From: a virus
IMG/VR virus record: IMGVR_UViG_3300026531_000002
Span: 5,351-69,350 of that record
DNA: 64,000 nucleotides
Strand: one strand, 5' to 3'
Numbering within the stretch: the stretch's first letter is position 1; the number at the start of each line of letters is the position of its first letter. The translations under genes were made by a program, and so were the position numbers. Shown piece by piece: positions 7,053-31,585 of the stretch. Below the pieces are notes generated by a model. The model did no database searches. It saw only the letters and a program-made list of their open reading frames with translations, and was not told the DNA's origin.

Positions 7053-7054
7053 AT

Positions 7055-15170: not shown

Positions 15171-15182
15171 TTTAAATGTAGA

Positions 15183-16144: not shown

Positions 16145-17422
16145 ATGTTTAATACACAAGAGATTAATAAAATTGAACACTTCTTCTTTAATCACCTAAT
16201 TAAAACAGTAAATATCAAAGAAAGAAAAGATTACTTAGCAGATTTCTTTAAAGAAAACCCAAAACTAGCCTTTAAATTAAGACACTACGCAGAATTTTTA
16301 AACCCTGTTAGAGTTAGAACACAAAGATTAGGAGTTAAGTCTGCTATCTTTGCTAAAGAAATTGATACAGAAATTGAAACATTATACTTCAATAAATTCT
16401 TATATTACTATTTAACAGCTCCTCATAAAGTAACTGAATTAGGGCTGTATAAACATATCACACAAACTAAATACAATCTATTAGGCTTCCTAACTAGCAA
16501 GGAAATTAAGCAAGCAATTAGAAACCTTAAAAATTACAAAGTAACTATGACTAAAACAGAAGTATTAGGTTTATTCAAAGAACATATAGATAAAGATAGG
16601 GAAGAATTTGATAAAAACAAAATCAAAGTGTATAAAACAGAAGAGTTTTACCCAAATATACCTAAAATCACTATTGCTAATTTAAGAGTTCCTACTACAA
16701 GAAACCATTTATTCTTTTTTTATGTTGATAGCAAAGGCTTTACACACACTTCTTTAGATGGCAGGTTACATTATAGCTATATACAATATTTAAAAGATAA
16801 GATAAGATTAGGTAAAGTATTAATAGGGTTTGTAGAACACAAAGACTCTGATTTAATACACAATAGATTAGTTGAATTTAAACAGGTTCATAAAATCAAA
16901 AAAAGAGTTTTTAATCACATTTACCACCATATATGTCAAACAGATTTAAACCTACAATTTGAACTATTTAAAAAAGGAGAGCGAAATCACTGTGAATTTG
17001 AAGACTGTCCTAGAATAGATAGCTTTAACAATTTCTTAATAGTCCAATACTCAAACTTTAAACCTACTTATGTTAAAGCCGCTAAAAACAAAGAAACACA
17101 AGTAGCTAATTATTTTTACCAATTCAGTAGATTAGGGGTATTGCAAAAAAAATATGAAATAAAAGTTATGAAACCTAATCTAGTTGAAATAGAAGCCCCT
17201 CAAGGTTTTATCCATTACATAAAAGTAAAAATTAAAGGCAAAAATTATAAAGTAAAAATGAGAAGAAAAGCTATTGACTTGACACAAGAACAACTAAAAA
17301 ATTTAGATGTAGAAAAAACAAAAGCAAAATGTATTGTGATGAAAGATAAAGGAAAAATAAAAGGAGTTGAAATACTAGAGCTTGACCCTGTGTATAAAAA
17401 AGTAAAAGTTAGGGGATTATAG
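16145..17422 (+). CDS. Basic hypothetical protein (possibly degenerate ligase-like)
   Basis: 425-aa ORF on the opposite strand to its neighbours; CGAAA box at 16119-16123. Confidence 0.55.
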   Translation: MFNTQEINKIEHFFFNHLIKTVNIKERKDYLADFFKENPKLAFKLRHYAEFLNPVRVRTQRLGVKSAIFAKEIDTEIETLYFNKFLYYYLTAPHKVTELGLYKHITQTKYNLLGFLTSKEIKQAIRNLKNYKVTMTKTEVLGLFKEHIDKDREEFDKNKIKVYKTEEFYPNIPKITIANLRVPTTRNHLFFFYVDSKGFTHTSLDGRLHYSYIQYLKDKIRLGKVLIGFVEHKDSDLIHNRLVEFKQVHKIKKRVFNHIYHHICQTDLNLQFELFKKGERNHCEFEDCPRIDSFNNFLIVQYSNFKPTYVKAAKNKETQVANYFYQFSRLGVLQKKYEIKVMKPNLVEIEAPQGFIHYIKVKIKGKNYKVKMRRKAIDLTQEQLKNLDVEKTKAKCIVMKDKGKIKGVEILELDPVYKKVKVRGL

Positions 17423-17659
17423 CCCTAACTCATCAAGAAGCATTTTATTATGCCTCACAGCTTTCAAAACTCTGTGTATTCTTAATCTAAGCTCGTACAA
17501 ATCATTGTATGATTTAGTTTTAAGCTCATTAGCCATTAACTCATCAAGCTCTTTAGCCAGCACCTTACCAGCCTCATATTTAAATCTAATAGCCTCTTTG
17601 TAAGGTAAATCCGCAAACTCTTTAGGGTCTAACCCATATAAATATCTAGCATCAATCAT
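17417..17659 (-). CDS. Hypothetical protein
   Basis: ORF overlapping the sigma-factor stop. Confidence 0.55.
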   Translation of the reverse strand: MIDARYLYGLDPKEFADLPYKEAIRFKYEAGKVLAKELDELMANELKTKSYNDLYELRLRIHRVLKAVRHNKMLLDELGL

Positions 17660-18359
17660 ATACTTTCCACACTAATTTTACAATATCATCTAAGTCTGTT
17701 TCATCGCTTAACAAGTACTTGTCCAGAACCTCTTTAACCTCTTTACTAGCTTCTTCAATAACTTCTAACACTTCTTTCCTTTTAAGTCCTGTTTTCTTCC
17801 CTATAAAAGTTGTTTTTTCATTATAAATAAAATAATCTATTAAAACAAATAGTTCAATATCACTTAAAACTTTTCTTAGGTCTGCTATAACCCTCTTAAA
17901 AAAATTGTCTAAAATAACTTGCTCTTCTAAAGCTAATTTTTGTTGTCTCCCTACTGTTATTCTTGCCACATCTACCGTTTCAATAGTGGGAGTTAAGTCT
18001 TTTAAAGGTACAAAATCTCTTTGTTTAGGTCTAACTGTAACAGCACCATAAATAGATTGTTTGCCTATATAATCTTGCATAGAACCTACTATTCTTCTGT
18101 GGATATACCCCATATAATTATCATTTTGGGTAGGGTCATACCTACTTAAACCTCTAATATAGGCTAATACCCCCTCAACAAACAAATTCTCTTTGGTAAT
18201 AGCCTCAAAAGATTTAGCGGCAATCTTAGAAGCTTTTGTATAAATAAACCTTAAATGCTCATTTGGTATATCCCATTTCCCATTCTTAAAAACAGGAATT
18301 GGATTTCCTTTATCATTATATGTAATACTAACATCTTCTCTATCTAAAAAGTGCTTCAT
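17652..18359 (-). CDS. Phage RNA polymerase sigma factor, FliA/sigma28-like
   Basis: ENLFVEGVLAYIRGLSRYDPTQNDNYMGYIHRRIVGSMQDYI fits sigma region 2 of the FliA type; LSDIELFVLIDYF...IGKKTGL...EV fits region 4. Confidence 0.8.
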   Translation of the reverse strand: MKHFLDREDVSITYNDKGNPIPVFKNGKWDIPNEHLRFIYTKASKIAAKSFEAITKENLFVEGVLAYIRGLSRYDPTQNDNYMGYIHRRIVGSMQDYIGKQSIYGAVTVRPKQRDFVPLKDLTPTIETVDVARITVGRQQKLALEEQVILDNFFKRVIADLRKVLSDIELFVLIDYFIYNEKTTFIGKKTGLKRKEVLEVIEEASKEVKEVLDKYLLSDETDLDDIVKLVWKVYD

Positions 18360-18362
18360 TTC

Positions 18363-20039
18363 TTATCCTTTCTCTTTTTCACAACGGCTTAAACCATTCT
18401 CTTTAATAATTTTTAAAACTCTGTAATTACTATTCATTTCAATATTATGATTAATTAAATAGATAGCCTTATTATACTGTAAATTAAGCAATCTTTCAAC
18501 AAACCCTATTCCCTCTTTATCAAAAACACCTAAAATCTCATCTAACACAATAACATTTGGTGTTTGAACTCCTAAAGTATTTAAAACATTATGAACAGCA
18601 AATAACAGTACTAAATTAACTCTTAGTCTTTCTCCAGCACTTAAAGCAGAATAATTACGGTTACTTCCATTAACTTCAAAATCTAGCTTAATAGTCTTAT
18701 TCACTAAACTAATATGTATAATAAAGTTGTTTGCAGTTAACTTAAATAACTCTTCGGCCTTGATTGTCAGTAGAGCTACAAAATGTTCTAACAGTTTGCT
18801 CTCAATATCTCCTGACCTGATGTATTTGTGTAGTTGGTCAAGATTGCTTATTCTTTTCTTTAAAAACAACTCTTCTGATTCTAACTCTTTTTTCTTTTTA
18901 ATAAGCTTTGCTCTGTGTTTTAGTAACTCTTTATTCTCTTCATTCATTTGCTTAGCATTATCAATCTTATTAGTTAAAGAATTGATTGTCTCTTTATAAT
19001 AAGAAACTTTATCATCATAATCTTTGCGACGTTGTTTCAGCTCTGTTTCAATATCTTGTAATTCATTTTTAAGAGCTGAAACAACCCCTGCTTGTCTCTC
19101 TCTTGCATTTTCAAGTTTAGAAAGTGCTTTTTCATAATCTGTAACAGTTCCTGTCACATCACTCTTACACACAGGACAAGTTCCTGTCTTAAGTTTGTTT
19201 ATAATACCTTTTCCAACCTCTATTCTAGCATCTAATTTATTTAACTTTTGAAGCTCTGTGTTGTATATACTTTGTTTATCTTGTAAAGCACTTGATAAGC
19301 CCTGTATAAGCTCTACTAAGTTATTTGATGCTTTAAACTTATTATACTCTTTCTCAATACTTTCTAACTCCGCCTCATAAGGTCTTGTATCAATTTCCTT
19401 ATAATCAACTGATAAAGTGTTATCAATTCCCACTAATTTAGAAATAACCACATCTAACTTATTTTTATAAATTGTTTTTTCATCAGCTAATACAGTAGCT
19501 AATTGATTTACTGTTTCAAGATTTAATAAAGTGTTTAGTAGTCCACCTTTTTTATGCAGATTTACAATATTTTCAATAGTGTTTGGATTGTTATATAGCA
19601 TTAAAGCAAAACTAGAAAATGATAGCCCTGTAATATTTTGCTCTATATATGCTAGTTGTTGTTTTTTAGTCTTAGGAGTAATATCAATCCATTCCCCATC
19701 AATATTTTTAAAAATGAAAGTTACAGTCCTACTTCTATCATTTAAAATAGTGTATAGGTTTCCGTCAATACCTGTTAGGATTAACTCAAGCATATAAGGC
19801 TTTCCTGTAACATTATTTGAAACATCTTTAATAGTTAGTTTTTCAGACTTCAAATTTTTATCATATAGGCACTGTAAAATAGCATTAAAAACAGCTGTCT
19901 TACCTGCTCCATTACTTGTGTTATCTTCACTCAACACATCTCTATTTTCTCCCTCAACAATAGTTACACCATCTTCAAATTCAACAGTACAACTATCAAT
20001 ACTAAAAAAGTTATCTATATAAAGCTTTCTAAGGGTCAT
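18363..20039 (-). CDS. SbcC/Rad50-like ATPase (T4 gp46 / T5 D13-like)
   Basis: NFFSI, SNGAGKT, coiled coil with CPVC zinc hook, LSAGE signature, VLDE, INH. Confidence 0.92.
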   Translation of the reverse strand: MTLRKLYIDNFFSIDSCTVEFEDGVTIVEGENRDVLSEDNTSNGAGKTAVFNAILQCLYDKNLKSEKLTIKDVSNNVTGKPYMLELILTGIDGNLYTILNDRSRTVTFIFKNIDGEWIDITPKTKKQQLAYIEQNITGLSFSSFALMLYNNPNTIENIVNLHKKGGLLNTLLNLETVNQLATVLADEKTIYKNKLDVVISKLVGIDNTLSVDYKEIDTRPYEAELESIEKEYNKFKASNNLVELIQGLSSALQDKQSIYNTELQKLNKLDARIEVGKGIINKLKTGTCPVCKSDVTGTVTDYEKALSKLENARERQAGVVSALKNELQDIETELKQRRKDYDDKVSYYKETINSLTNKIDNAKQMNEENKELLKHRAKLIKKKKELESEELFLKKRISNLDQLHKYIRSGDIESKLLEHFVALLTIKAEELFKLTANNFIIHISLVNKTIKLDFEVNGSNRNYSALSAGERLRVNLVLLFAVHNVLNTLGVQTPNVIVLDEILGVFDKEGIGFVERLLNLQYNKAIYLINHNIEMNSNYRVLKIIKENGLSRCEKEKG

Positions 20040-20284
20040 TCCATACCCTCCCTAATATCTTTTAAAGTTTGGATAATGTGGTCTAAATCTTCTTTACTAA
20101 GTTCTGATGTGTCCATATCATATACATACTCCTCATCTTCTTTCAAAAAAGATAGAAAAGCTCTATTATCTACTAGACTAAAAGTACACTTAACAATAGG
20201 GCAATCAACTAGCTCACCCTCAAACTCTAACAAAACTCTAGTTTCTGCTTTATCTCCAAAATATTTAAAATCAAATTTACTCAT
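20036..20284 (-). CDS. Hypothetical protein
   Basis: Coupled ORF in operon. Confidence 0.55.
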   Translation of the reverse strand: MSKFDFKYFGDKAETRVLLEFEGELVDCPIVKCTFSLVDNRAFLSFLKEDEEYVYDMDTSELSKEDLDHIIQTLKDIREGME

Positions 20285-20516
20285 AGATATTTGCCTCCAT
20301 TTCTAATACAAAATCTTTAAAAAGTTTTTTAGGCATTTCTGTAAAAGAATGATTTTTCAACTCACCCTCTAAATCTGTGATGATAATCTCTAAAAATATT
20401 TTTCCATCTTTATTTACAAACCTGACAGAATGTTCTTCCTCTCCTGTTGTATCAACAACCTCTAATGTGTCACTTTTAGCACCTGTATTGTGGTCAAACA
20501 TAGTTACAAATTTCAT
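20277..20516 (-). CDS. Hypothetical protein
   Basis: ORF with AAGGAG RBS. Confidence 0.55.
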   Translation of the reverse strand: MKFVTMFDHNTGAKSDTLEVVDTTGEEEHSVRFVNKDGKIFLEIIITDLEGELKNHSFTEMPKKLFKDFVLEMEANIYE

Positions 20517-20528
20517 TTTATTTCTCCT

Positions 20529-20864
20529 TTATATTTTTTTAATTGCATCTAACAAATCTTGATAAAAAACTTTTTGGGCATTTGCCCAAGAACTTTCATC
20601 AGACTTTTTCGGCAAATGCCGAAGAACTTTTTCGGGAATTCCCGAAGAACTTTTTAAGCTCTCATTATATACTTTTAAGATTAATTCCCAAGTCTCTTTT
20701 TTTCTTAGATAAGTATCAAGTCTTTTAGGTTTCAACCCTTTAGCTTCTCTAATAGAATTACCAATCTCTAACACATCTTCTAATTTTCCCATCATTGTCT
20801 TGTGCCATATTTTAACACTACCAAACTTACCCAAATTAACTGTCATTAATTGATTAGTTTTCAT
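20529..20864 (-). CDS. KilA-N-like DNA-binding protein (short or truncated)
   Basis: MKTNQLM...KRLDTYLRKKETWELI resembles a KilA-N N-terminus. Confidence 0.6.
   Translation of the reverse strand: MKTNQLMTVNLGKFGSVKIWHKTMMGKLEDVLEIGNSIREAKGLKPKRLDTYLRKKETWELILKVYNESLKSSSGIPEKVLRHLPKKSDESSWANAQKVFYQDLLDAIKKI
20569..20655. repeat. Three ~23-bp units, each with a 16-bp palindrome
   Basis: ttgggcatttgcccaa, ttcggcaaatgccgaa and ttcgggaattcccgaa, each followed by gaacttt. Confidence 0.85.
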
Positions 20865-20911
20865 TTTATTTCTCCTTTATATTTTTTTTATTCATTATAA
20901 CAAAACAACCT

Positions 20912-21832
20912 TTAAAGCCCCTTAAACAACCCTAAAAAGTAATTTAACTCACTGCCTTGATATTTTTCTTTGATATAACTTTCAATAATCTCTTCGGCAG
21001 TTGTAACAGGAGCTGTTTCAATCACACTAGAAACTCTTTCACCCTCATACACAACCTCTATAATATTTTGATGTTCGGGCTTATAATCAGGATTGCTTGT
21101 CACAACCTTATACAGATGCTTATTCTTCTCCTCTTCAGATAGCTTACTAAAATCCTTATCAGATATTTTATACTTGTTACCTAAGTCTAATTTTACAGCT
21201 GTTAATTGAAGTTTGTAATCTAATTTAAATACTATATTATCAAGCATACTAGCTTCTTTAAAGTGTGTAGTATAAGGAGAGCCAGAATATATTACATTAT
21301 TTCTAATAAAGTTGTGTGTATGAATATCTCCTAATAGTGTTAAATCATATAAACCAGATACTAAATCAGGACTTACTTCATCTTCTACATAAGGGACTCC
21401 AGCTCTAAAGTGACTAAATAACACCTTACAGCCCTTTGTGTCAGTTATTTTATCTAAGTTATTCCAATCTACAAACCTACATTCAATCCCATCAATAAAT
21501 ACTACATCATTTCTAAGTAATACAAACTTATCTTTTAAATACAAATAATCAAATGTAGTAGTATTTTTATCAATAGCCTCGTGATTTCCTGCATATAAAT
21601 AGATTGTGTATTTCTCTTTCAAAATTTCAATAAAATCTAAAAACAACCCAACCTCTCTAATTGTTGGATACCGTTTATCAAAAATATCCCCCCCTAAAAT
21701 AATGTTTTCCTCATCTTTAAAAGCTTCTTTTTTAGTTAGTTGGGTAGCTAAATCAAGCACCCTATTCTCCTCAAAAGCATCAATCTTTTTATTTCCAGAT
21801 AGTTTAATGTGAATATCAGCAGTAAATATCAT
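20912..21832 (-). CDS. SbcD/Mre11-like nuclease (T4 gp47 / T5 D12-like)
   Basis: ADIH, GGDIFD, AGNHE, FSH, LGDIH, YSGSP. Confidence 0.92.
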   Translation of the reverse strand: MIFTADIHIKLSGNKKIDAFEENRVLDLATQLTKKEAFKDEENIILGGDIFDKRYPTIREVGLFLDFIEILKEKYTIYLYAGNHEAIDKNTTTFDYLYLKDKFVLLRNDVVFIDGIECRFVDWNNLDKITDTKGCKVLFSHFRAGVPYVEDEVSPDLVSGLYDLTLLGDIHTHNFIRNNVIYSGSPYTTHFKEASMLDNIVFKLDYKLQLTAVKLDLGNKYKISDKDFSKLSEEEKNKHLYKVVTSNPDYKPEHQNIIEVVYEGERVSSVIETAPVTTAEEIIESYIKEKYQGSELNYFLGLFKGL

Positions 21833-21898
21833 ATATCATCCTTTTTTGTATATTATACCTTATTTTAGCTGAAAAATAAAAGGTTTTAATGGTTGGCA

Positions 21899-21956
21899 TA
21901 GGGAAATATATAGGTAAGAATAGAAAATGGGTTGTAGGGGCTGTTAGACCCCTTTA
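21899..21956 (-). repeat. Dispersed ~58-bp 3' element, copy 1
   Basis: Reverse complement aligns to 24871-24928 at about 47/58 by eye. Confidence 0.7.
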
Positions 21957-21965
21957 TGGATAGAT

Positions 21966-22232
21966 TTAATCAGCTAATACAACATCAAACAAGAACTTAC
22001 TAAACTCTTGAAAGTACTTATTCTTATGTACTGATTTATTATTATATACTCTCACTAGAAAACCTTTTAAATCATACAAAGCTTCAGAAGCCCCTAAATC
22101 TTGTAAAATCTCATAATAGTCTTCTAAATAAATAAGATAGTCAGAACTAAATTTATAATCTTTCATAAACTTTCTAATATACTCTTCAATCTCCTGTTTC
22201 AGTGCTTTATCAGCTTCTGTTTCAATACACAT
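21966..22232 (-). CDS. Hypothetical protein
   Basis: Coupled ORF. Confidence 0.55.
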   Translation of the reverse strand: MCIETEADKALKQEIEEYIRKFMKDYKFSSDYLIYLEDYYEILQDLGASEALYDLKGFLVRVYNNKSVHKNKYFQEFSKFLFDVVLAD

Positions 22233-22757
22233 CTAATCCTCCTCATCAATATCATCAATAGCTCTAAAAGTTGCCTCAATTCCTTTAATCTCTTTTGCTC
22301 TGTCTTGTAACAAATCCTCCTCAAAAAATAGAGAAATCATTAATATCTCTAGCCTTTCTTGAATGTTATCAAGGGTCTGATAAAAATCCTCTAAAGGTTT
22401 CTTTTTCCACTTCTGTTTAGCTTTCTTAATCACAGCTTCACTATCATACTCTTTACCAACTATTGCATAAACACTCCTAACCAGTGCCGCAACAGCATTT
22501 TCAACTTTCTTAAAAGAATAGTTAATGTTGTTTTGTGTGATATAATCAAAAACTTCAAAAACAATAGGAGCAAAAGCTAAATCTTCTAAATCAGGGTTCA
22601 TAACTTCTAAATCTAATTTATAAGCAATTACCTTAGTGTATAAATCAAAAATCTTATCAACATCAACTTTATCAGCATATTGTAAAGTAATGTCACTGCT
22701 CCCTAAAAGCTCCTGTTCAATTAAATTAAGTGTTGTAACTACGTCTATATGTTTCAT
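22233..22757 (-). CDS. Hypothetical protein
   Basis: ORF with AAGGAG RBS. Confidence 0.6.
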   Translation of the reverse strand: MKHIDVVTTLNLIEQELLGSSDITLQYADKVDVDKIFDLYTKVIAYKLDLEVMNPDLEDLAFAPIVFEVFDYITQNNINYSFKKVENAVAALVRSVYAIVGKEYDSEAVIKKAKQKWKKKPLEDFYQTLDNIQERLEILMISLFFEEDLLQDRAKEIKGIEATFRAIDDIDEED

Positions 22758-22771
22758 TTTATTTCTCCTTT

Positions 22772-23986
22772 CTAAATAAATTGTTCTTCAAGAGCTTTAG
22801 ATGCTTTCTCAATTAACTCTTGTGTTTCTCTTTTCTTTCTCTCTTTTTCAAACTCGTAATACTCATAATAAGAGTCAAACCCCATTATGTGTGCCATAGC
22901 CTCATCAAAATCTTCTGCAAAAGCCTCACCTGTTAAATCACTTAAGAACTTATCAAGTAAAGCATAGCTAAGTCTATCAAAATCAATGTCTTTATTGTCT
23001 TTAGCTCCTAATAATAACATAAGAATATCTTTAATAATCTTTTTATATTTAGCGGCACTAGACTTAGAGATACCAGTAAGCTTTGCTAGCTCCCTAACTG
23101 ACATATTTCTAATTTGTTTAATAGTAAGCATATTAGCTGAAATAGCCTCTATAATCTTTCTAATAGTTTTATCTTTCTTTCTTTGTGCTAACATTCTATT
23201 AAAAGCAATAGTTCTCTCATTTGTAGTCCTATTAACATACTTAGTAATCATAAACTTATTAATACTTGCTACAATACTCTCTACTTCTTTTTTGGGTAGT
23301 GGATTTTCCATTTTCTCAAGTGTTGAATAAGCTTCTGCCACAAGTCCATCTAAGCCTATATTTCTAAAGTTTCTATAAGCCCATTTTCTTAAATAATCAA
23401 ACATCTTAACATTTCTCTCTCCTTTCTTAGCTTTAATAACATCTTTTTTAGCTACAAATACTCTCTTTCTGCTCTTAACTTTCTTAAATGTTTTTTTCTT
23501 AACCTCATAAGTAGCTAATAAATCATCAAACTCATATAAACTCTTAATAGTGTGTCCAAACTCCATTGTAGAGTGCTTTAAAGGGTTTCTCCAAACTCTA
23601 CCAGCACTAGCCGCCTTAGCGTGAATATCAGCTCCTAACTTATCTGCTAAAGCATTTAAAATAAAGTTTAATTTTTGTGTTTGTTTATAGTTAGAAGTTT
23701 TAATAGGATTTTGTAAAAACCAATGAATGTGAAACCCTCTAGTAGTCTTTACAATCATAGTTGGTAAAGGAATTTTAAGCTCTGTAAAAACTTCAATAGG
23801 GTCTTTATCTTCAAAAGGATTAACATTATCTATATCAATACTAATAGCAGGAATAAAATATTCATTTCCTAATCTAATAAAATTATAATCTAATGCTTTT
23901 TCTTTTTTAACATAACTATATTCTTCATTCTTATCATTGGTAACTAATACAGAATAATTTAAACTTTTAGTAATTAATTCTTTCAT
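22772..23986 (-). CDS. Plasmid-type replication initiator (ColE2/pAL5000 Replicase + PriCT + HTH)
   Basis: ISIDID, TTRGFHIHW, LGAD, RNP; GERNVKMFDYLRKWAY...PLPKKEVESIVASI; C-terminal HTH SVRELAKLTGISKSSA. Confidence 0.82.
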   Translation of the reverse strand: MKELITKSLNYSVLVTNDKNEEYSYVKKEKALDYNFIRLGNEYFIPAISIDIDNVNPFEDKDPIEVFTELKIPLPTMIVKTTRGFHIHWFLQNPIKTSNYKQTQKLNFILNALADKLGADIHAKAASAGRVWRNPLKHSTMEFGHTIKSLYEFDDLLATYEVKKKTFKKVKSRKRVFVAKKDVIKAKKGERNVKMFDYLRKWAYRNFRNIGLDGLVAEAYSTLEKMENPLPKKEVESIVASINKFMITKYVNRTTNERTIAFNRMLAQRKKDKTIRKIIEAISANMLTIKQIRNMSVRELAKLTGISKSSAAKYKKIIKDILMLLLGAKDNKDIDFDRLSYALLDKFLSDLTGEAFAEDFDEAMAHIMGFDSYYEYYEFEKERKKRETQELIEKASKALEEQFI

Positions 23987-24063
23987 TTCCTTTACCTCTC
24001 TTAAACTTTAAACTAATTATAACAAAATAAAACTTAAAAGTAAATTAAGTCTAATAAGAATAC

Positions 24064-24216
24064 CCAACTACTGAACTATTAAGATTATACACTTACTAAT
24101 AAATACTAATCTCTTTTACTATAAATATTTAGTATATGTATTAGATACCCTCACAGCACTGTACCAGCTCTTAAACAGTTGCTTGTTTTTTTAAACAAAC
24201 TGATGGTTTTGGACAC
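24064..24216. repeat. Left arm of bipartite inverted repeat (69-bp and 26-bp blocks)
   Basis: 24064-24132 matches revcomp of 25230-25298 (64/69); 24191-24216 is the exact revcomp of 25111-25136. Confidence 0.92.
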
Positions 24217-24337
24217 CTACAAAACCACAACTTACACAATACCTAAACAGCCCTGATACAGGACTTTTAAAGCATTTAATAACAAATTAAGAAAAAGTAC
24301 AGTACAATATAAAATAACAACTTAAAAGGAGATAAAA

Positions 24338-24844
24338 ATGATTACAATCCAAAAAACAAATAAAGGTTACAAGTTAGCTAATTCTGCTTATACAAATGAG
24401 TATATTAATTTACAAAAAGCTTATAAGGTTGCTTTAAAAGAGTTGGTAAAGTTCTTAGAGTTTATTACTAAACAATATCTAAGTAGTGTTTTAAAAAGTG
24501 AAGTTAGAAAGTTAAATAAACAACTTTATTATACTAAATTAAAGATTAGTAGTGATTTAGAGTTTAGTTATGATAAATTAAATAGTTTAGATTTTGTGAA
24601 TGAAATTGAATGTTGTATTGAAATTAAACTAAGACCTTTAAGTCCTTTAAAAGTAAATTTAATTAATGATGAAATCGAACTAGCTTATAACCGACTAAAA
24701 AATAAACAAAAAGAAGTTAAAAAACTAAGATTTGATTTACTTAATAAAATCAACAGTCTAAGACCTAAAAAAGTTAAAAATATACATGAAGTTAATAAAA
24801 TCATCAATGAATTAGAAAAAATGATTGATACTACTTTCCCCTAA
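24338..24844 (+). CDS. Basic hypothetical protein between the inverted repeats
   Basis: AAGGAG RBS, 168-aa Lys-rich ORF. Confidence 0.6.
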   Translation: MITIQKTNKGYKLANSAYTNEYINLQKAYKVALKELVKFLEFITKQYLSSVLKSEVRKLNKQLYYTKLKISSDLEFSYDKLNSLDFVNEIECCIEIKLRPLSPLKVNLINDEIELAYNRLKNKQKEVKKLRFDLLNKINSLRPKKVKNIHEVNKIINELEKMIDTTFP

Positions 24845-24870
24845 TTAACCTAACAACTGTTATACCTCTT

Positions 24871-24928
24871 TAAAGGGGTCTAGCAGGCTCATAAATCCAT
24901 TTTCTCATCTTACCTATACATTTACCTA
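24871..24928 (+). repeat. Dispersed ~58-bp 3' element, copy 2
   Basis: taaaggggtctagcag...ccattttctcatcttacctatacattt. Confidence 0.7.
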
Positions 24929-25010
24929 CCCTTAACCTTAAAAGTGCTTCAAAAGCTTATTTTGTTGTTTTTATTGTTAAAGAGTTGGTACAGTTAGTTT
25001 TTTAACATAC

Positions 25011-25053
25011 TATCCATTATTAAAACAAGGAATTTTACAATTAGTTTAGATAA
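25011..25053 (-). mobile_element. Degenerate IS200/IS605 left-end remnant
   Basis: tatccattattaaaacaaggaattttacaattagtttagataa aligns with 4236-4280. Confidence 0.55.
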
Positions 25054-25110
25054 TTCTGACAAAGTGCTTAAAAGGTGCTGTTTAGGTGCTTTGAAAGGGG
25101 TTTATATTAA

Positions 25111-25298
25111 GTGTCCAAAACCATCAGTTTGTTTAATTTTTTAAAAGCTTTTCAGTTTCCGTACCAGTCCTTGAAAGATTGCTTGTAGTCTTAACTGTAT
25201 TAGTAATTGTATCAGTATAATAAGAGTATCTAAATATTTAAATTAATAGAGATTAGTATTTATTAGTAAGGGTATAATCTTATTAGTTCAGTAGTTGG
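25111..25298. repeat. Right arm of bipartite inverted repeat
   Basis: Counterpart of 24064-24216. Confidence 0.92.
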
Positions 25299-25380
25299 TT
25301 ATTTATTAAGTAAGTTTGAGTTTGTTGAAAGTAATGAGATAATAAGTTATAATTTGCTAAACTTTTAAGGAGCTGTGTAA

Positions 25381-25887
25381 GTGTTTTATTCTCATTTGGA
25401 TAAGTATTTTTATAATAATAAGAAGAGGTTATTAATTTCTATTGTACCAGAAAGGAAACAAAATAAGAAAATAATTACTTTTTATTGTAAAGGTTGTAAA
25501 AAGTATTATACTCAAAATATGACTAACTTAATTAGACAAGGTTTAAAGAAATGTGATTGTTATAAAAATAAGTTTACTCCTCATCACAAAAATAGTAAAG
25601 AGTTAGGTTTTTTATATATTATTCAGGATTTAGAAACAGGACTCTATAAGATTGGAATTACTAAAAATATTAAGAGGAGGTTTCAAGGTAAAAGAATAGC
25701 TGTGTTATTTACTGCTTATAGTGTATTAGGAAATTTGTATGATATAGAACAGTATATTCTAAATGAGTATTCAGAATACAAAAAGTTTAATCTTAACTAT
25801 AAAAGTAATGGTGGAACAGAATTTTTTAAGTGTGATTATGATATAATTAATAAAATGATTAAAGACATTAATAAGGAGTTACAATGA
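25381..25887 (+). CDS. GIY-YIG (T5orf172/MUG113-like) endonuclease
   Basis: CKGC...CDC zinc motif, GFLYII, YKIGIT..IKRRF, GGTEFF. Confidence 0.8.
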   Translation: MFYSHLDKYFYNNKKRLLISIVPERKQNKKIITFYCKGCKKYYTQNMTNLIRQGLKKCDCYKNKFTPHHKNSKELGFLYIIQDLETGLYKIGITKNIKRRFQGKRIAVLFTAYSVLGNLYDIEQYILNEYSEYKKFNLNYKSNGGTEFFKCDYDIINKMIKDINKELQ

Positions 25888-26066
25888 AAATTTACACTAT
25901 TTTTTGTGACTATGATATAGGACAAGATGAGTTTGCATTCACTACTAAAGAGAAGGCTATTGAGTGGGCTAAAGAAGCTATTGAATTGGTTGGGGATATT
26001 GAAGAAGACTTTGACGAGTTAGTGAAAGATGGTCTTATTTATTTTGAAGAGAAAGAATTGATTTAA
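25884..26066 (+). CDS. Hypothetical protein
   Basis: RBS and overlap with upstream stop. Confidence 0.55.
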   Translation: MKIYTIFCDYDIGQDEFAFTTKEKAIEWAKEAIELVGDIEEDFDELVKDGLIYFEEKELI

Positions 26067-26094
26067 ACCGAAACAGGGCTTAAAAGGAATTGAG

Positions 26095-26418
26095 ATGAAC
26101 TTTATTAAGGTTATATTAGATAATTCATCTATAAATACTAAAGGAATTGGTAAAGAGCCTTTTAAGCCTAATAAGAAAGAGTTTTTAAAGCTGTATAAAA
26201 AATATACAACTAAAGAGATAACAGCTACTACTTTTAAGAAAGAATTGCACAATAGATGTGATATTATAGGCTGTGTAAGTAATAATCAAAGTATAGTTGA
26301 TTGTGATACATGTCCTATTTTTGATTGGTGTCAAGCTGAAAAGGGTTATGAACAGATTAAAATGGGAGCTGTTACAAAAGCTGTTAAAGAGCTGAATAAG
26401 AATAAAGGTAAAAAATGA
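26095..26418 (+). CDS. Hypothetical Cys-rich protein
   Basis: CDTCPIFDWC; CGAAA box at 26069-26073. Confidence 0.55.
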   Translation: MNFIKVILDNSSINTKGIGKEPFKPNKKEFLKLYKKYTTKEITATTFKKELHNRCDIIGCVSNNQSIVDCDTCPIFDWCQAEKGYEQIKMGAVTKAVKELNKNKGKK

Positions 26419-26512
26419 ATTTAATCAAATGGCTTATTTTAGAAGTTGCTTTGTTTATTTGGTTGGCTGTGTCAGTCTTAATAGATGCTATATCAGCACT
26501 TAGGAGGTAAAG

Positions 26513-26983
26513 ATGTTAAAAGTTGGTTTAGACTTATCAAGCACTGCTTCGGCTGTTGTAATATTAAATGAAAATAACACTCTTATTGACTTCTTTTTAA
26601 TTCAACCTAATAAAGCTTTAGACATTATGGATAGAATTATTGAGATAGGTAAAAAAATAAGAGATGTTTTAGGGTATTACCAATTAGAGATTGAAAAGGT
26701 GAATATTGAGAGTGGAGCTTTTATGGCTAAAGGCAAGAGAAATGAACTAGCAATGCTGAATGGTATTGTTTATTTTATTAGTAGAGATTTAGGCTTCAAT
26801 ACTATTACAACGCCTCCAAACTCACTTAAAAAGAAAGCCACAGGAAATGGAAGAGCTTCAAAAGCGGACATGTTCGATGCCTTGCCAGATGCTGTTGCTA
26901 TGAGATTTATAAATAGTGAGTATAAGAAATTAGATGATTTAACTGATGCTTATCATTTAGCTAAAATTATTGATATTCCTTAA
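26513..26983 (+). CDS. RuvC-like Holliday junction resolvase
   Basis: VGLDLS, IES, PPNSLKKKATGNGRASK, DDLTDA. Confidence 0.88.
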   Translation: MLKVGLDLSSTASAVVILNENNTLIDFFLIQPNKALDIMDRIIEIGKKIRDVLGYYQLEIEKVNIESGAFMAKGKRNELAMLNGIVYFISRDLGFNTITTPPNSLKKKATGNGRASKADMFDALPDAVAMRFINSEYKKLDDLTDAYHLAKIIDIP

Positions 26984-27117
26984 CAAGACAGGCTACTTTC
27001 CTATACTCTCTTTTACGGGAGTATATCCTTTTCTTATTTTGTTAAACTTCTACTTTTATTTTCATTTAAGTTTTATTAGGTATAATGGGTGTATATAAGC
27101 AAATAAGGAGAATTGAA

Positions 27118-27819
27118 ATGAAAGATATAATTCAAATTAACACACAGGTAATAGGTGCTGATACAGTTAATGCTGTTAATGCTAGAGAGCTTTGGAAGGC
27201 TTTAGAAAGTAAACAACAATTTGCTGATTGGATTAAGAAGAGATTAGAAAGATTTATTGAAAATGAGGATTTTATAGTTATTCATAATTCTATGAAAAAC
27301 CCTCAAGGCGGGAGACCACAAAAAGAGTATATTATAACTGTTGATACCGCTAAAATGATAGCAATGATGGAAAACAACCAAAAAGGTGATGAAATAAGAA
27401 GATACTTTATTGAAATTGAGAAAAAATATAAAGCTGATAACCCATCTTATATGATTGAAGACCCAATTAAAAGGGCTGAAAGATGGATTGAAGAGGAAAA
27501 AGAAAGACAAAAATTAGCTTTAGAGAATAAACAAATGAAACCCAAAGCAGAATATTTTGATGCTTTAGTAGAGAGAAAGTTATTAACTAATTTTAGGGAT
27601 ACTGCTAAAGAATTTGGTATAGGTCAAAAAGACTTTATTCATTTTCTGTTAGATAATCATTTTATTTTTAGAGATAAGAATAAACAAATAAAACCATATA
27701 ATGAGTTTGTTCCAGAGTTATTTGAAATAAAAGAGTGGAAATCTAAAAAGAAATCAGGGTTACAAACCTTAATAACACCTAAAGGTAGAGAGACTTTTAG
27801 ATTATTATTAAATAAGTAA
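27118..27819 (+). CDS. Antirepressor (AntA/AntB N-terminus + KilAC/ANT C-terminus)
   Basis: VNARELWKAL...FADWIK...GGRPQKEY...RRYFIEIEK; KPKAEYFD...TLITPKG. Start placed at the ATG after AAGGAG. Confidence 0.9.
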   Translation: MKDIIQINTQVIGADTVNAVNARELWKALESKQQFADWIKKRLERFIENEDFIVIHNSMKNPQGGRPQKEYIITVDTAKMIAMMENNQKGDEIRRYFIEIEKKYKADNPSYMIEDPIKRAERWIEEEKERQKLALENKQMKPKAEYFDALVERKLLTNFRDTAKEFGIGQKDFIHFLLDNHFIFRDKNKQIKPYNEFVPELFEIKEWKSKKKSGLQTLITPKGRETFRLLLNK

Positions 27820-27840
27820 GACAGGCTACTTTCCTGTCTT
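27818..27840. terminator. Bidirectional terminator
   Basis: aagacagg-ctacttt-cctgtctt between convergent genes. Confidence 0.6.
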
Positions 27841-28125
27841 AACAAACTTCTTATTATACTCTATATTAACCTTATTCAGCTTCATAAATCTCTTATAAAG
27901 TGTTGTATCATACTTTCTTATTTTATTGAAATCAGATACACTCATACACAATCTATTTCCTTTTTGGTGTAAAGTTATTTTAGGTCTTTTAGGGACTTTG
28001 TAAACTGGCATTTTAGGGTATTTTGGTGTAACTTTTTCAGGACTTGCACAACCACTTAATAATAATGGTATAGTATAAAGTACATTTAGTAATTTAAAGT
28101 GTTTTTTATAAAATACATTTAACAT
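27826..28125 (-). CDS. Lipoprotein, putative o-spanin
   Basis: Lipobox LLLSGC followed by a Pro-rich segment; downstream of an i-spanin-like gene. Confidence 0.65.
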   Translation of the reverse strand: MLNVFYKKHFKLLNVLYTIPLLLSGCASPEKVTPKYPKMPVYKVPKRPKITLHQKGNRLCMSVSDFNKIRKYDTTLYKRFMKLNKVNIEYNKKFVKTGK

Positions 28126-28135
28126 TTTTTACTCC

Positions 28136-28414
28136 TTAATATATAATTGTGAATGTTTTTTCTTCTGGTTCAGTTGTTTGTTTGCTTACAGGTAAAGGTT
28201 TAATCTCTTTTACTGAAACATTTACATCTTGCAATAAAATATCTTGTACTACCTCTTGAAAATCAGAAGCTGTTTCAAGGCTTTCTAAATTCTGTTTACA
28301 TACTTTTAAAGTGCTTTCTAGCTTCTCTATTTTGTTGGTATAGTATTGATAACCGATTATTAAACCTAAAACTAAAATAGTTGGGATTGCTACTTCTAGT
28401 ATTTTTCTATACAA
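28136..28414 (-). CDS. Putative i-spanin (Rz-like)
   Basis: N-terminal TM helix then coiled coil with Cys; late box upstream. Confidence 0.6.
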   Translation of the reverse strand: MYRKILEVAIPTILVLGLIIGYQYYTNKIEKLESTLKVCKQNLESLETASDFQEVVQDILLQDVNVSVKEIKPLPVSKQTTEPEEKTFTIIY

Positions 28415-28439
28415 TTTAAACTCCTATTTTTATGTTGAG

Positions 28440-28444
28440 TGTCG
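28440..28444 (-). promoter_or_regulatory. Late promoter box CGACA
   Basis: ggCGACActcaacataaaaataggag. Confidence 0.6.
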
Positions 28445-28515
28445 CCGTTTCAGCTTTTTGTAAGTTAATTTTTGCTAGACTTTGCAAGTGTTATTATTTT
28501 TAAAAAAGGATAAAG

Positions 28516-28683
28516 ATGAAAGAAATCAAATATAAAGGAAAGCCTGCCAAACTCTTGAGAGTGGTTAAAGATAAAGTTTATAAAAGGGCATTTACTTATT
28601 ACTTAATAGAGGTAGAAAGGAAGAAAAATCCACAAATATGGTTAGGTAAAAAAGCCTACGAAGAAAATGTAGAGGAGGTATAA
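28516..28683 (+). CDS. Small hypothetical protein (55 aa, not in ORF track)
   Basis: AAGGA RBS; MKEIKYKGKPAKLLRVV...EENVEEV; stop abuts the next ATG. Confidence 0.6.
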   Translation: MKEIKYKGKPAKLLRVVKDKVYKRAFTYYLIEVERKKNPQIWLGKKAYEENVEEV

Positions 28684-28908
28684 ATGATTATTAGTGTATT
28701 GGAGAAAAACGGTAAAAAGTATTATCACACTATTTCAATTATTGATAAAGTGTTTGATAATGTATATGAGTGTTATTTTGATAAGGTTAAAACTCTTGTG
28801 AAATTTGAGAACATTATACTACAAGATTTAGTGATGGGTGTTTTGTTTGAAATAGATAAAAATGATGAAATGATAGTGCTTAGAAAGGCTTATGATGAAT
28901 GTAATTAA
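28684..28908 (+). CDS. Hypothetical protein
   Basis: GGAGG RBS; overlaps dnaB start. Confidence 0.55.
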   Translation: MIISVLEKNGKKYYHTISIIDKVFDNVYECYFDKVKTLVKFENIILQDLVMGVLFEIDKNDEMIVLRKAYDECN

Positions 28909-30088
28909 TAGAGCTGTTGCATATGCCGTTAAAGAGGGTAAGGAGAACCTTTTAACAAGCTTATTAAATATTAATAGTGAAAAAGGTTTAGTTAAAATTT
29001 TAAAAGAGTTTTATAGTACTTACAAGAGGTTACCTAATGCAAATAACTTTAAGACTTATATTTTACACAAACACCCTAATTATAGTAGCACTTTTAATAA
29101 GCTAATAGAAACTGAATTTGATGATATCACAGTTTCTATTATAAAATCTTCAGTAGCTAAAGAAGTTGTTATGAAGGATATTAATAAGCTACTAGAAAAT
29201 ATTAATGAAGAAGAAACTGAATCAGTGCTGGTTAAGTTAGATAAAATAAAATCTAGTGCAGTTAATATTTTAGATAGTGGGTTAGTAAATCCAAAAGATG
29301 ATGAGTATGCTGTTGAAGCAATGACAACAGTTGAATCTTTTATTCCTATCCTTAAGCAAAAGAATTATCAATTTGCTGGTTTAAACATTATTGGTGGTGA
29401 TACAGGAGGGGGAAAGTCTATTTACTTACTACAACAGCTTATGTATAATTATGAGAGAGGAAAAGATGTAGCAATGTTCTCTTTAGAGTTAAGTAGGTTT
29501 GAGGTTTATGCTAGAATGTATAGTTTAGTTAATAATGTACCATTTGAGAAAGTGTATGCTAATCCTAATTATATTGATAGGGTTAATGAGTGGAAAAAAG
29601 ACTATTTTAATAGGGATAATCAATTTCTTATTATGGATAATGATTTAACAACAGATGGTTTATATTCTGAATTAGAAACTTTAAAAGGGTATGTAATAGG
29701 GATAGACTATCTAAATTTAGTAGAGCCAGCTGAAAAAGATAGCTTTAAAGAGAACTTCTTTGTTTTATCAAAAATGGCAAAGCACTTACACAAGCTGGCT
29801 AAGAGGCTTGGTCAGGTCATATTCAGCCCTGTGCAGATTAATAAAGAAGATGTGAAAGAGAAAGATAATGTTATTAAAATATCTGTTAGAGGTTCTAAAG
29901 AGTTATTGTTTAGTGCTACTTCTTTTGTGTATTTATTAAAGAGTGAAGAGAGTAACGGAGAAGATGAGTTTGATATTATGAAAGCTTATTTCTTGAAAAC
30001 TAGAAATGCTCCTAAATGTGTTGTTATTTTAGAGGCTGATTTTGCTTGTATGAAGTTTTTACCAACTGTTATTTATGAGAGAATTTAA
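28892..30088 (+). CDS. DnaB-like replicative helicase
   Basis: GGDTGGGKS, FSLEL, IGIDYLNLV, SPVQIN, KTRN. Confidence 0.88.
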   Translation: MMNVINRAVAYAVKEGKENLLTSLLNINSEKGLVKILKEFYSTYKRLPNANNFKTYILHKHPNYSSTFNKLIETEFDDITVSIIKSSVAKEVVMKDINKLLENINEEETESVLVKLDKIKSSAVNILDSGLVNPKDDEYAVEAMTTVESFIPILKQKNYQFAGLNIIGGDTGGGKSIYLLQQLMYNYERGKDVAMFSLELSRFEVYARMYSLVNNVPFEKVYANPNYIDRVNEWKKDYFNRDNQFLIMDNDLTTDGLYSELETLKGYVIGIDYLNLVEPAEKDSFKENFFVLSKMAKHLHKLAKRLGQVIFSPVQINKEDVKEKDNVIKISVRGSKELLFSATSFVYLLKSEESNGEDEFDIMKAYFLKTRNAPKCVVILEADFACMKFLPTVIYERI

Positions 30089-30123
30089 GTATAATACGTT
30101 AAAATAAACAAAAAGGAGATTGT

Positions 30124-30708
30124 ATGACAAAAAATCAATATAAAAAAACAGGTAGTGATGAATCATATACTTACCCATATTTGATAACACCTTTATTGTC
30201 TTTTATTGAAGAATTTAAAGATAAAATAGGAAAGGAAAATTTGACAATATGGTGTCCATTTGATTTAGAAAAAGATTTAGAGATTAAAGGTGTAAAATAT
30301 TTTGAAAGTTATTATTGTAAAATATTTAAAGAAGCTGGTTATAATGTAATATGTTCTCATATTTTAACAGGACAAGATTTTTTTGAGTATGAACCATTAG
30401 ATTATGATATTATTGTTAGTAATCCACCATTTAAAAATAAAAGGCTTTTTTTTGAAAGAGCTTTAAGCTTACATAAACCATTTGTTTTATTAAGCACTGC
30501 TTCGTGGTTTAATGACGGCGGTGTATATAATGTATTTAAAAATGAAAAACTACAATTATTAATGCCAAAGGAAAGGGCTGTATTTTTTGATAATAGTAAA
30601 AATCAAATTGGTAAAAGAGCCTCATTTAAGTCTATATACTATTGTAAAGATTTTTTAGTTGGTCATGATATTAAATGGTTTGAGTTAGGAAAACAAAAAG
30701 GAGTTTAA
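30124..30708 (+). CDS. Putative N6-adenine DNA methyltransferase
   Basis: DESYT, IWCPFD, GQDFF, IVSNPPF, KPFVLL. Confidence 0.75.
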   Translation: MTKNQYKKTGSDESYTYPYLITPLLSFIEEFKDKIGKENLTIWCPFDLEKDLEIKGVKYFESYYCKIFKEAGYNVICSHILTGQDFFEYEPLDYDIIVSNPPFKNKRLFFERALSLHKPFVLLSTASWFNDGGVYNVFKNEKLQLLMPKERAVFFDNSKNQIGKRASFKSIYYCKDFLVGHDIKWFELGKQKGV

Positions 30709-30709
30709 A

Positions 30710-31585
30710 ATGAGAGAGTTAATTTTAGATTATTTAGAAACAAGTGGTATTCCCTATAAAGTAACAGGTGACGAGTGGATTTTATCTAAATGCTTTAATC
30801 CAAAACACAATGATAAAAGTCCATCTCTTTCAATTAATACTGAAACAGGGGCTGGAAAGTGCTTTGGGTGTGGTTTTACTATACACCCTATTTTTTGGAT
30901 TAAAGGTGAGATAAATGATAAAATACTATTAGAAATGGAAGCTAAAGCAATACTTAATAAGCATTTTAAAAAGAAAGATGAGCCAAAAGAAAAAGTAGAG
31001 TTTAAATTACCAATCAAAACTAGAGATGTTGAGGCAGGTTGGAGAGGTCTTGAGGAAGATACTATTAATAAACTAGATTTATTCATTACTGATAAGGGTA
31101 GATTTAAAAATAGAGTAATATTTCCTTTTTACAACTCTAAAAAGAAGTTACAAGGGTTTAATTCAAGAGCTTTGGGCAATGAAACTCCTAAGTACTTATA
31201 CAGTAAAGGTATAGACCCTTATTCAATTATTTATCCAGCTTTTAATGTGTTTGATATTCAAAGAAGTGAAGTTGTTATTGTAGAGGGGATTATAGATGCT
31301 ATTTTAATGAATCAGGTGGGTTTGAAGGCTATATTTAATTTTGGAACAGCAAATATTTTTACTGATAAAAAAATAGAGTACCTTTTAAGTCAAGGTATAG
31401 AAACTTTAGTGTTAGCTTTAGACAAAGATGAAGCAGGCTTTAAAGGTAACGGTAGGTACTTATCAGATAAGAAGATAAGAAAGTACTTTGATATTAAATT
31501 AGTAAAAGAGTACAAACCTCTTCAAGATTTTTTTGTATCCGACTACAAGGACTTTTCAGACTATTATCTGTCACTTATTTCTTAG
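30710..31585 (+). CDS. DnaG-like primase
   Basis: Zinc finger CFNPKH.D..PS...CFGCG; RVIFP; PKYL; TOPRIM VEGIID, LDKDEAG. Confidence 0.92.
   Translation: MRELILDYLETSGIPYKVTGDEWILSKCFNPKHNDKSPSLSINTETGAGKCFGCGFTIHPIFWIKGEINDKILLEMEAKAILNKHFKKKDEPKEKVEFKLPIKTRDVEAGWRGLEEDTINKLDLFITDKGRFKNRVIFPFYNSKKKLQGFNSRALGNETPKYLYSKGIDPYSIIYPAFNVFDIQRSEVVIVEGIIDAILMNQVGLKAIFNFGTANIFTDKKIEYLLSQGIETLVLALDKDEAGFKGNGRYLSDKKIRKYFDIKLVKEYKPLQDFFVSDYKDFSDYYLSLIS

Follow-up and report, generated by a model that had tools for sequence, protein, structure and literature searches.

Background

The systems that come closest to the locus described here are found in phages and plasmids. Middle promoters of phage T4 carry a MotA box, in lambda-like immunity regions a repressor gene lies between outward promoters that share operators, and the ssiA and ssiB sites of plasmid RSF1010 are recognised as hairpins of single-stranded DNA within one compact oriV, together with RepC iterons and the RepA helicase. 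The PeSL cassettes of T4-like phages were reportedly treated by Arbiol et al. in 2010. Here we analyse a 64,000-nucleotide (nt) stretch of viral DNA (positions 5351-69350 of the 69,350-nt IMG/VR contig IMGVR_UViG_3300026531_000002, hereafter the window), in which the gene of a ColE2-type replication protein (Rep) lies beside a mirror-image pair of repeats at the main switch of coding strand. An earlier interpretation of the letters alone (the sequence-only reading) had seen in this pair a possible bidirectional replication origin; we lean towards another explanation, in which the repeats would be control elements at the heads of two divergent operons.

Both explanations have precedents. Excerpts of Comeau et al. 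2014 (PMC4122927) describe PeSLs as composite terminator/promoter cassettes that are reiterated in T4-like phages, and according to a passage in PMC3016281 some phage T4 promoters double as replication origins. As to plasmids, extracts of PMC3632715 and PMC5304414 place the ColE2 origin at the 3' end of rep, inside or directly behind it, with two CAGATAA repeats and an AGA primer site, and extracts of PMC8567376 and PMC4538821 have RepB' of RSF1010 prime on two inverted 40-nt sites, ssiA and ssiB. The heavy reuse of promoter cassettes by the window phage itself is a precedent for duplicated control cassettes.

Mirrored repeats at the strand switch

Minus-strand genes extend from 4381 to 23986, where Rep starts, and plus-strand genes from 24338 to 35226. 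The leftward operon holds Rep, SbcD-SbcC-sigma, FEN, PolA and ribonucleotide reductase (RNR) in this order, with further genes in between; the rightward operon consists of T5orf172-RuvC-Ant-DnaB-DnaG-dNMP kinase-helicase. At the junction we find an inverted repeat of 74 nt (Table 1), the arms of which are 92% complementary (68/74 identical); the 69-bp block first noticed within it (24064-24132 against 25230-25298) is identical at 64/69 positions. Further inwards follows an inverted 26-mer (24191-24216 against 25111-25136, 26/26 identical) that widens to 29 nt at 97%, and at 23-24 nt inside each 26-mer there is a third mirrored block of 11 nt (11/11). The two 26-mers are 894 nt apart, whereas the spacers that separate them from the 74-nt blocks measure 58 and 93 nt and cannot be aligned. 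The order on each side is thus 11-mer, 23-24 nt, 26-mer, variable spacer, 74-nt block and proximal promoter and, because the third block is colinear with the others, both sides carry one ordered module. In all these respects the sequence-only reading had described the DNA correctly: repeat lengths, identities, places and outward-facing TATAATs, unconserved spacers, a single enclosed open reading frame (ORF) and a switch in gene orientation are all there.

The window holds exactly two occurrences each of a 26-nt core from the 74-nt block and of a 20-nt core from the 26-mer; two matches of either core were reached in 0/100 dinucleotide shuffles, and the entire 69,350-nt contig holds no additional copy of either block. 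Within the 74-nt block, ATTAGT(A) repeats are spaced 10 and 20 nt apart. The block was not called as a promoter by the promoter scan because its TATAAT has no acceptable -35 element beside it.

Table 1. Features at the mirrored junction of the window and GHKL-ATPase ORFs in three long relatives
Feature	Position	Strand	Remarks
Rep, 404 aa	22772-23986	-	AEP primase domain, PriCT-1 helix bundle, C-terminal helix-turn-helix (HTH), acidic helical tail
Proximal sigma-70-like promoter of Rep	24016-24044	-	TTTACT-17-TATAAT with TG; promoter scan; member of the phage's reiterated promoter family
Left 74-nt arm	24059-24132	-	AT-rich stretch, two ATTAGTA 10 nt apart, outward TATAAT (24084-24089), about 25 nt conserved downstream
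Left copy of family motif, pointing to Rep	24191-24219	-	GGTGTCCAAAACCATCAGTTTGTTTAA read on the minus strand; nhmmer E 1.2e-6
Terminator-like hairpin over left motif copy	24203-24228	-	Not kept at right copy
Left 11-nt block	24241-24251	-	GCTGTTTAGGT on the minus strand; 24 nt from motif
Enclosed cassette	24279-24844	+	Weak promoter of its own (24279-24315) and orphan ORF168 (24338-24844, 168 aa)
Right 11-nt block	25077-25087	+	23 nt from motif
Right copy of family motif, pointing to T5orf172-RuvC-Ant-DnaB-DnaG operon	25108-25136	+	nhmmer E 3.1e-6
Right 74-nt arm	25230-25303	+	TATAAT 25273-25278; ATTAGT at 25252, 25262 and 25282
Proximal sigma-70-like promoter of rightward operon	25325-25353	+	TTGAAA-17-TATAAT, 11/12; promoter scan
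T5orf172-domain protein, first gene of rightward operon	25381-25887	+	Pfam T5orf172 1e-8
Ant antirepressor	27085-27819		AntA 6e-24, ANT 2e-21
GHKL-ATPase ORF of G001	6811-8895
GHKL-ATPase ORF of G003	1992-4073
GHKL-ATPase ORF of G002	81765-83957

An orientation-specific motif across the phage family

The 26-mer is one version of a motif found across the family, GGTGTCC(n)AA(A/G)ACC(T)AT...TGTTT, which lies upstream of Rep and points at it in 11 of the 14 Rep-bearing sequences. Rep relatives are encoded at ten metagenome loci. Five of these (L004, L008, L010, L012 and L013) have the motif upstream of Rep, on its strand, in the form GTGTCnAAAACCAT(N3-5)TTGTTT, with nhmmer E-values from 1.6e-8 to 4.6e-4, and in L007 and L011 a diverged version is found that has the exact 11-mer ACCATCAGTTT in common with the window. 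L012 carries a second, inverted copy 3.5 kb away (38 nt, 97%); what lies between its arms differs from the window and comprises eight small ORFs. For the small ORFs between motif and Rep in the relatives, Pfam gave nothing over the cut-off.

Copies are not confined to Rep. A portal alignment retrieved 12 more related viral contigs, and three of ten whole records searched encode Rep: G001 (82,148 nt), G002 (89,672 nt) and G003 (83,427 nt). In each of the three, a variant peculiar to that genome lies upstream of Rep where FEN and Rep diverge, with near-identical copies elsewhere, amounting to four copies in G001, five in G002 and four in G003; the sites concerned are the FEN|Rep junction, the TerS-like/TerL operon, the portal operon, a GHKL-ATPase ORF and two odd sites. 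The GHKL-ATPase ORF (about 700 aa, HATPase_c_3) is preceded by a copy in all three long relatives; a blastp search found no counterpart of it among the ORFs of the window's 69-kb contig. With a generic form of the motif, the four genomes yielded 12 matches and 50 shuffled sets yielded 3. Two viral contigs, fragments of related phages (L015 and L017+L018, with TerL about 40%, portal 47-48% and capsid about 39% identical), show the identical motif ahead of TerL, in between TerL and portal and behind the tube gene, each time co-directional; Rep was not found in them. In lineage B the copies occupy gaps of 25-100 nt that precede TerL and portal and follow the tube gene; one of these copies has about 85 nt of its downstream sequence, including a TATATAAT, in common with the copy at the Rep operon.

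Over everything scanned we count 30 copies in 15 of 24 related sequences, 11 at the head of Rep and 19 elsewhere, and 25 of the 30 are followed by a co-directional ORF. Among the five exceptions in orientation, that of L011 is an artefact of ORF calling at a contig end and that of L013 is due to one inserted gene. Within any one genome the copies hardly differ over 24-33 nt, and the shared unit of G001 and of G002 runs on for a further 25-45 nt, whereas between genomes the 3' half differs. In G002 an outward-facing pair, 45 nt apart, stands where TerL and portal diverge, at a distance of about 36 kb from the Rep gene. Because this pair lies away from Rep, a mirror pair can be understood to arise wherever two divergent operons each carry the motif. 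Pairing as such is not a family trait, since the FEN|Rep junction has a single copy in G001, G002, G003, L007 and L011. An uncultivated phage family, probably of hydrothermal vents and with genomes of about 82-90 kb, thereby gains a defined cis-element with genome-specific variants, and a map of its sites across the family is now in hand.

The G002 pair (17770-17880, L068) faces outward across a palindrome, TTTTTGACGTA...TACGTCAAAAA, as a compact form of the mirror layout of the window. At 1617-1636 of L004 a 10-mer (ATGTTTCACG) occurs twice in tandem about 35-55 nt upstream of the motif, before Rep; it looks like an iteron and is confined to the L004 lineage. A scan of 596 Gb of prokaryote genomes yielded 24 further matches. 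These were taken as chance because there was no extended similarity and no Rep-family ORF in the DNA fetched (one weak match, L021, 2.8e-4), and the viral contigs L014, L016 and L019 were set aside as likewise unrelated.

Proposed control cassettes at operon heads

The sequence comparisons incline us to the view that the repeats are two copies of an orientation-specific transcription-control cassette, one at the head of each divergent DNA-metabolism operon; that the motif is a promoter-type element in particular is put forward more tentatively. Its distribution, orientation, repetition and block-wise conservation lead us to infer a role in transcription and a factor acting in trans. Each mirrored region would be one copy of an upstream control module, with an orphan gene cassette between the two, and the 26-mer would be the window phage's version of the orientation-specific operon-head element of its family. 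The motif would most likely serve as a phage-specific promoter or recognition box, or else as a promoter-coupled regulatory site, and be read by RNA polymerase together with a putative phage-encoded factor. In this way several operons could come under one control, and selection or gene conversion may keep the copies uniform within a genome. The 74-nt arms would form a second shared promoter/leader block. The module of the window would then be a longer, partly decayed inverted duplication of the head cassette, in which constrained blocks were kept and spacers were not: 26/26, 68/74 and 11/11 positions are identical in the blocks, against spacers that cannot be aligned. With one copy per operon head, and a mirror pair where operons diverge, the architecture of the window can be explained without replication and the repeats taken as control cassettes. 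The sequence-only reading had kept duplicated promoter/operator blocks as its fallback, and it is this fallback that the comparative evidence favours (30 copies, 19 of them away from Rep). More generally, what appears as a mirror-image origin in one genome can stem from two divergent operons that share a head element, which calls for caution when origins are called from inverted repeats and GC skew.

In several respects the elements resemble PeSLs. They are small, reiterated and orientation-specific intergenic cassettes at gene or operon boundaries and are alike within a genome, and they flank variable orphan genes and indels (the ORF168 deletions described below; the eight small ORFs of L012). 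Terminator-like hairpins are also associated with them, directly upstream in two of the three relatives' copies tested and at the left copy of the window, so that of the composite of terminator and promoter that marks a PeSL the hairpin is seen at these copies and the promoter is putative. Unlike PeSLs, they are of unrelated sequence, belong to another phage family and are fewer (2-5 per genome), and their core is a 25-nt asymmetric box and not an obvious sigma-70 promoter. What they share with T4 middle promoters is that several operons are headed by a phage-specific box with a -10 element downstream of it; the box is much longer here.

Each proximal promoter is placed between a 74-nt arm and the first gene of its operon. 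The one in front of Rep belongs to a reiterated family of sigma-70-type promoters (about TTTATTTTATTTTAAGnTTTATTTTGTTATACTT, extended -10) with six direct and two inverted copies, and inverted-repeat pairs tie 24015-24058 to this family at 40085, 42886 and elsewhere. Its sites are 8204-8251 and 24015-24058 on the minus strand and 31587, 40095, 42887, 47050, 49377 and 56209 on the plus strand, where it fronts many small cassettes, that of Rep included. In the relatives, CGAT(A/T)A boxes occur between the motif and the starts of Rep, TerL or portal; there are none in 23900-25500 of the window. A phage sigma factor is present in G001-G003 as well (25-28% identity).

A number of observations weigh against the cassettes. 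At the heads of Rep, TerL and portal the motif is found 45-245 nt upstream of the start codon, with other promoter-like boxes (CGAT(A/T)A or TATAAT) in between; because of these there is no obvious need for the motif as a promoter. It can be read as holding a -35-like GTGTCC/TTGTCC and a -10-like TAnnnT, at a spacing that ranges from 17 to 21 nt across lineages, and it went uncalled in the promoter scan. A factor acting on the motif in trans was not identified; a T7-type RNA polymerase was unmatched in G000-G003, which is uninformative as the control genomes were also empty. Finally, no copy was seen in nine of the 24 sequences (L005, L006, L009, L048, L049, L050, L055, L057 and L058).

Conservation of the 26-mer through an RNA hairpin was rejected because only the left copy forms one. 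Folding z-scores against shuffles are -3.0 and -3.8 at the left copy and +0.7 and +1.1 at the right copy, which folds no better than shuffles, and by reading their sequences the relatives' copies have no conserved hairpin. A sigma-54 promoter and a DnaA box were weighed by eye only and dropped as unconvincing.

Enclosed ORF and local variability

The ORF between the two modules, ORF168, has no Pfam or PHROG family and no homolog but itself, and a fold search gave no match (TM at most 0.39). It is thus not a plausible conserved repressor, and a regulatory role for it finds no support in any of these searches. Two sequencing runs were compared as assembled contigs, so that rare forms could be missed; the runs X2 and X4, of small share, do not count here towards the habitat. 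Run X3 holds a close relative that is roughly 93% identical, as estimated from mismatch counts. It keeps both 26-mer regions, while ORF168 has deletions of 22, 201 and 96 nt; we count this indel-rich stretch between conserved 26-mers in favour of control cassettes. The contigs of this relative break at the 74-nt arms.

Indels are also found around the junction: in the X3 relative, 20533-20883 is short of 349 nt, 3768 additional letters stand between 25886 and 26080, and the Ant gene is missing owing to an 835-nt skip at 26983-27819. Because of these indels and the loss of Ant, we regard the region around the junction as highly plastic.

In X1, a run that resembles the source, one contig runs unbroken over 20000-24922 and passes both left arms. 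The contigs of this run break at 24893-24927 and at 25110-25140 with foreign loose ends, and the depth at these stretches is 25.4 and 36.6 in two bins, against about 14. Given the foreign flanks and the extra depth, other DNA in the X1 sample shares a 35-nt stretch after ORF168 and the 26-mer.

Rep protein

The sequence-only reading had named the gene at the junction a Replicase-PriCT-HTH Rep, which is borne out as an architecture by Pfam, a 37-member alignment, a profile match and fold matches. Rep scores 31.1 bits against Pfam Replicase PF03090 (cut-off 26), whereas the window Rep alone stays under the cut-off for PriCT_1 (17.5 against 21.1); over the 37 members, PriCT_1 is found in 31 and Replicase in 25. 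With D51, D53, H86 and D120 invariant in the alignment and H88 conserved in at least 90%, the family has the AEP catalytic motifs I (hhhDhD/E), II (sxH) and III (hD/E) as defined in PMC5862659, and among the closest nine sequences all motif residues are invariant. A profile of the family matches the DNA-binding domain of ColE2-P9 Rep (3vw4_A) at 7.9e-7 over the PriCT-1 region. The C-terminal HTH is formed by helices at 289-325 with a conserved S296-x-R298...G305, although HHH/HTH matches in Pfam are weak.

Fold comparison points the same way. The AlphaFold (AF2) model of Rep (pLDDT 85.5) was matched by Foldseek to the PrimPol of cyanophage S-2L (9.8e-6), RepB' of RSF1010 (1.5e-5) and a CAPP Prim-Pol, and to 3vw4_A with a probability of 0.98 (TM by target 0.48). 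Residues of about 330-404 (window 22772-23000) make up a lineage-specific, acidic and aromatic-rich helical tail that the other eight sequences of the close alignment are without; the model loses confidence at residues 321-370 (53-68) and regains it over the last helix (75-88).

An exhaustive HMMER search with Rep returned 176 relatives at E <= 1e-3, 31 of them at E <= 1e-30, which are 32-45% identical and about 290-400 aa long; a word-based protein search found only two weak relatives. The nearest plasmid proteins are annotated initiators of enterobacterial plasmids of 4.4-4.9 kb, with about 24% identity across 70-75% of the query; none of the 133 records reaches 60%. NCBIfam gave nothing over the cut-off for seven Reps, and IMG/VR searched with the single Rep or its two best homologs gave no match. 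Going by sequence and model, we take Rep to be a genuine AEP-PriCT-HTH initiator-primase of the ColE2/RepB' kind and a new phage clade of it; as far as architecture goes, the designation "ColE2-type Rep" is confirmed. The initiator-primases of this new, plasmid-type clade always lie at a divergent junction.

Replication origins as an alternative

The best surviving rival explanation holds that the motif is the cognate site of Rep, which would melt the DNA there and prime for PolA in one direction, as in ColE2. The opposed pair of the window would then initiate bidirectionally, and the extra copies of the relatives would be unidirectional origins co-oriented with transcription. We judge this unlikely, even if the strongest single association in the data speaks for it and hence against the cassettes, namely that the motif stands upstream of Rep, in the orientation of Rep, in 11 of 14 cases while the Reps are only 31-60% identical between lineages. 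In addition, at 8/8 loci with at least 600 nt upstream, one of the two arms of a divergent junction starts with Rep or with a small ORF and Rep. Like the site of a monomeric initiator, the motif is long (about 25 nt), asymmetric and non-palindromic, which also counts on this side of the balance, and its genome-specific 3' half recalls the specificity sites of ColE2-type origins described in an excerpt of PMC3632715. L012 and L013 have identical motifs with Reps that are 60% identical. PolA, DnaB and DnaG are all encoded by the phage, as the sequence-only reading had said, and the junction is the most AT-rich part of the window (GC 0.252).

Comparison with the plasmid systems is mixed. Like the class C theta replicon ColE2-P9, the phage has a Rep with AEP, PriCT-1 and HTH and no helicase domain, a paired family A polymerase and a short, asymmetric candidate site. 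Unlike in ColE2-P9, where the passages cited above (PMC5304414, PMC3632715) put the origin within the 3' end of rep or directly behind it, with two CAGATAA repeats, the motif lies upstream of rep and is reiterated at operons that are not concerned with replication; the CAGATAA pair is absent within rep plus or minus 400 nt in 7/7 loci, with at most one copy each, and Rep is only about 24% identical to the plasmid initiators. With the oriV of RSF1010 the locus shares two inverted copies of a site (26/26 identical), and RepB' is a top structural match of Rep; the copies are however 894 nt apart, an ssi-type hairpin is formed at the left copy only, and counterparts of RepC and RepA were not identified.

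Several observations argue against Rep-specific origins. Nineteen of the 30 copies are away from Rep and stand, strictly co-oriented, at the heads of packaging, portal and ATPase operons, the TerL|portal pair of G002 included, and the single copy at the five FEN|Rep junctions named above means that pairing is not conserved. What is supported of the original interpretation is a genuine Rep at the main strand switch and a conserved, selected cis-element; what is not supported is the opposed pair as a bidirectional origin specific to Rep, given that the motif also heads the TerS-TerL, portal and GHKL-ATPase operons and that the ColE2 hallmarks are absent.

Nucleotide skew had been suggested as a check. 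Raw GC skew was rejected as an origin signal because its minimum follows gene orientation. Coding-strand G-C skew at third codon positions varies with the strand of a gene and the side of 24.5 kb on which it lies, with values of +0.28 and +0.31 for genes along which forks leaving 24.5 kb would travel co-directionally and about 0 for the others. In a two-term model with a permutation test (n=500), the best orientation-independent switch falls at 23.5-25.5 kb, with a 19% reduction in variance that 18/500 permutations reach. This too weighs against control cassettes and weakly helps the idea of several Rep-recognised origins; the contrast is however confounded with early versus late gene class, and four-fold sites give no signal (377/500 permutations reach it). 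The lone plus-strand gene within the minus block (16145-17422) has a third-position skew of -0.39, unlike nearly all genes.

In its most extended form, which we rate a little lower still, the motif would be the recognition site of Rep and the family would replicate from several unidirectional, Rep-primed origins at operon heads, with opposed copies firing bidirectionally at divergent junctions (Rep|T5orf172 in the window, TerL|portal in G002). If true, replication and transcription would be co-oriented genome-wide by construction, site and initiator would co-evolve per genome, and nature would offer an instance of a ColE2-type Rep that primes at several origins co-oriented with transcription, for which the exact sites are now known. 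A literature search for phages with paired ColE2-type origin sites found none described among the listed papers that match most search terms.

Repressor sites, invertible segments and plasmid lifestyle as further alternatives

Mycobacteriophage L5 "stoperators" and the C1 operators of P1 suggest a further possibility, that the copies act as scattered, asymmetric operators or roadblocks at which a phage repressor silences several operons, and that Ant would relieve this. An asymmetric motif of which 25/30 copies are co-oriented with transcription in short intergenic gaps, near-identical within a genome and diverged between genomes, would fit such sites, and an Ant antirepressor is encoded in the window. 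We nonetheless find it improbable. There are only 2-5 copies per genome, and at the heads of Rep, TerL and portal they lie upstream of the promoter-like boxes and not over or behind them. Neither a repressor candidate nor an integrase was identified in the contig, where a missing gene is weak evidence because the contig is incomplete. Unlike the gene inside a lambda-like immunity region, the enclosed ORF168 is an orphan without family, homolog, DNA-binding signature or DNA-binding fold, and it is eroded in the close relative.

An invertible or mobile segment, with the repeats as its recombination sites or terminal repeats and ORF168 in the part that would flip or move, is in our judgement very improbable, for although inverted repeats do flank a single-gene segment that is indel-rich in the close relative, the contig has, unlike Hin/Gin systems, no match to site-specific recombinases (PF00589, PF00239; 69,350 nt searched, with controls matched in 14 and 12 of 14 genomes), ORF168 is unlike any transposase, the arms read outward into two operons that each have promoters of their own, and the X1 contig spans the left arms in reference orientation with no inverted joint listed among the assembled contigs. 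The sequence-only reading had offered this segment as one alternative and a phage-plasmid lifestyle as another; for the latter, ParA/ParB searches (PF13614, PF02195) gave no match in the 69-kb contig, which is weak evidence given that the contig is incomplete.

Genome context

The contig probably originates from a hydrothermal-vent metagenome. CheckV puts its completeness at 56%, a value that may be an understatement because the direct terminal repeats of G001 suggest genomes of about 82-90 kb for the family. G+C content of the window is about 30%. The virion module encodes capsid, prohead protease, portal, tail tube, TerL and tape measure, as in a tailed phage. The DNA-metabolism set comprises both RNR subunits (large and small), PolA, FEN, a sigma factor, SbcC, SbcD and Rep and, further, the T5orf172 protein, RuvC, Ant, DnaB, DnaG, dNMP kinase, a SNF2-type helicase and ThyX. 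Rfam and tRNA scans of the window were without a match, as was a phage collection searched with the window DNA and Rep. In its C-terminal part, the prohead protease gene contains a repeat array with a period of 12 nt (37661-37880), which gives a low-complexity, PARP-like Pfam match.

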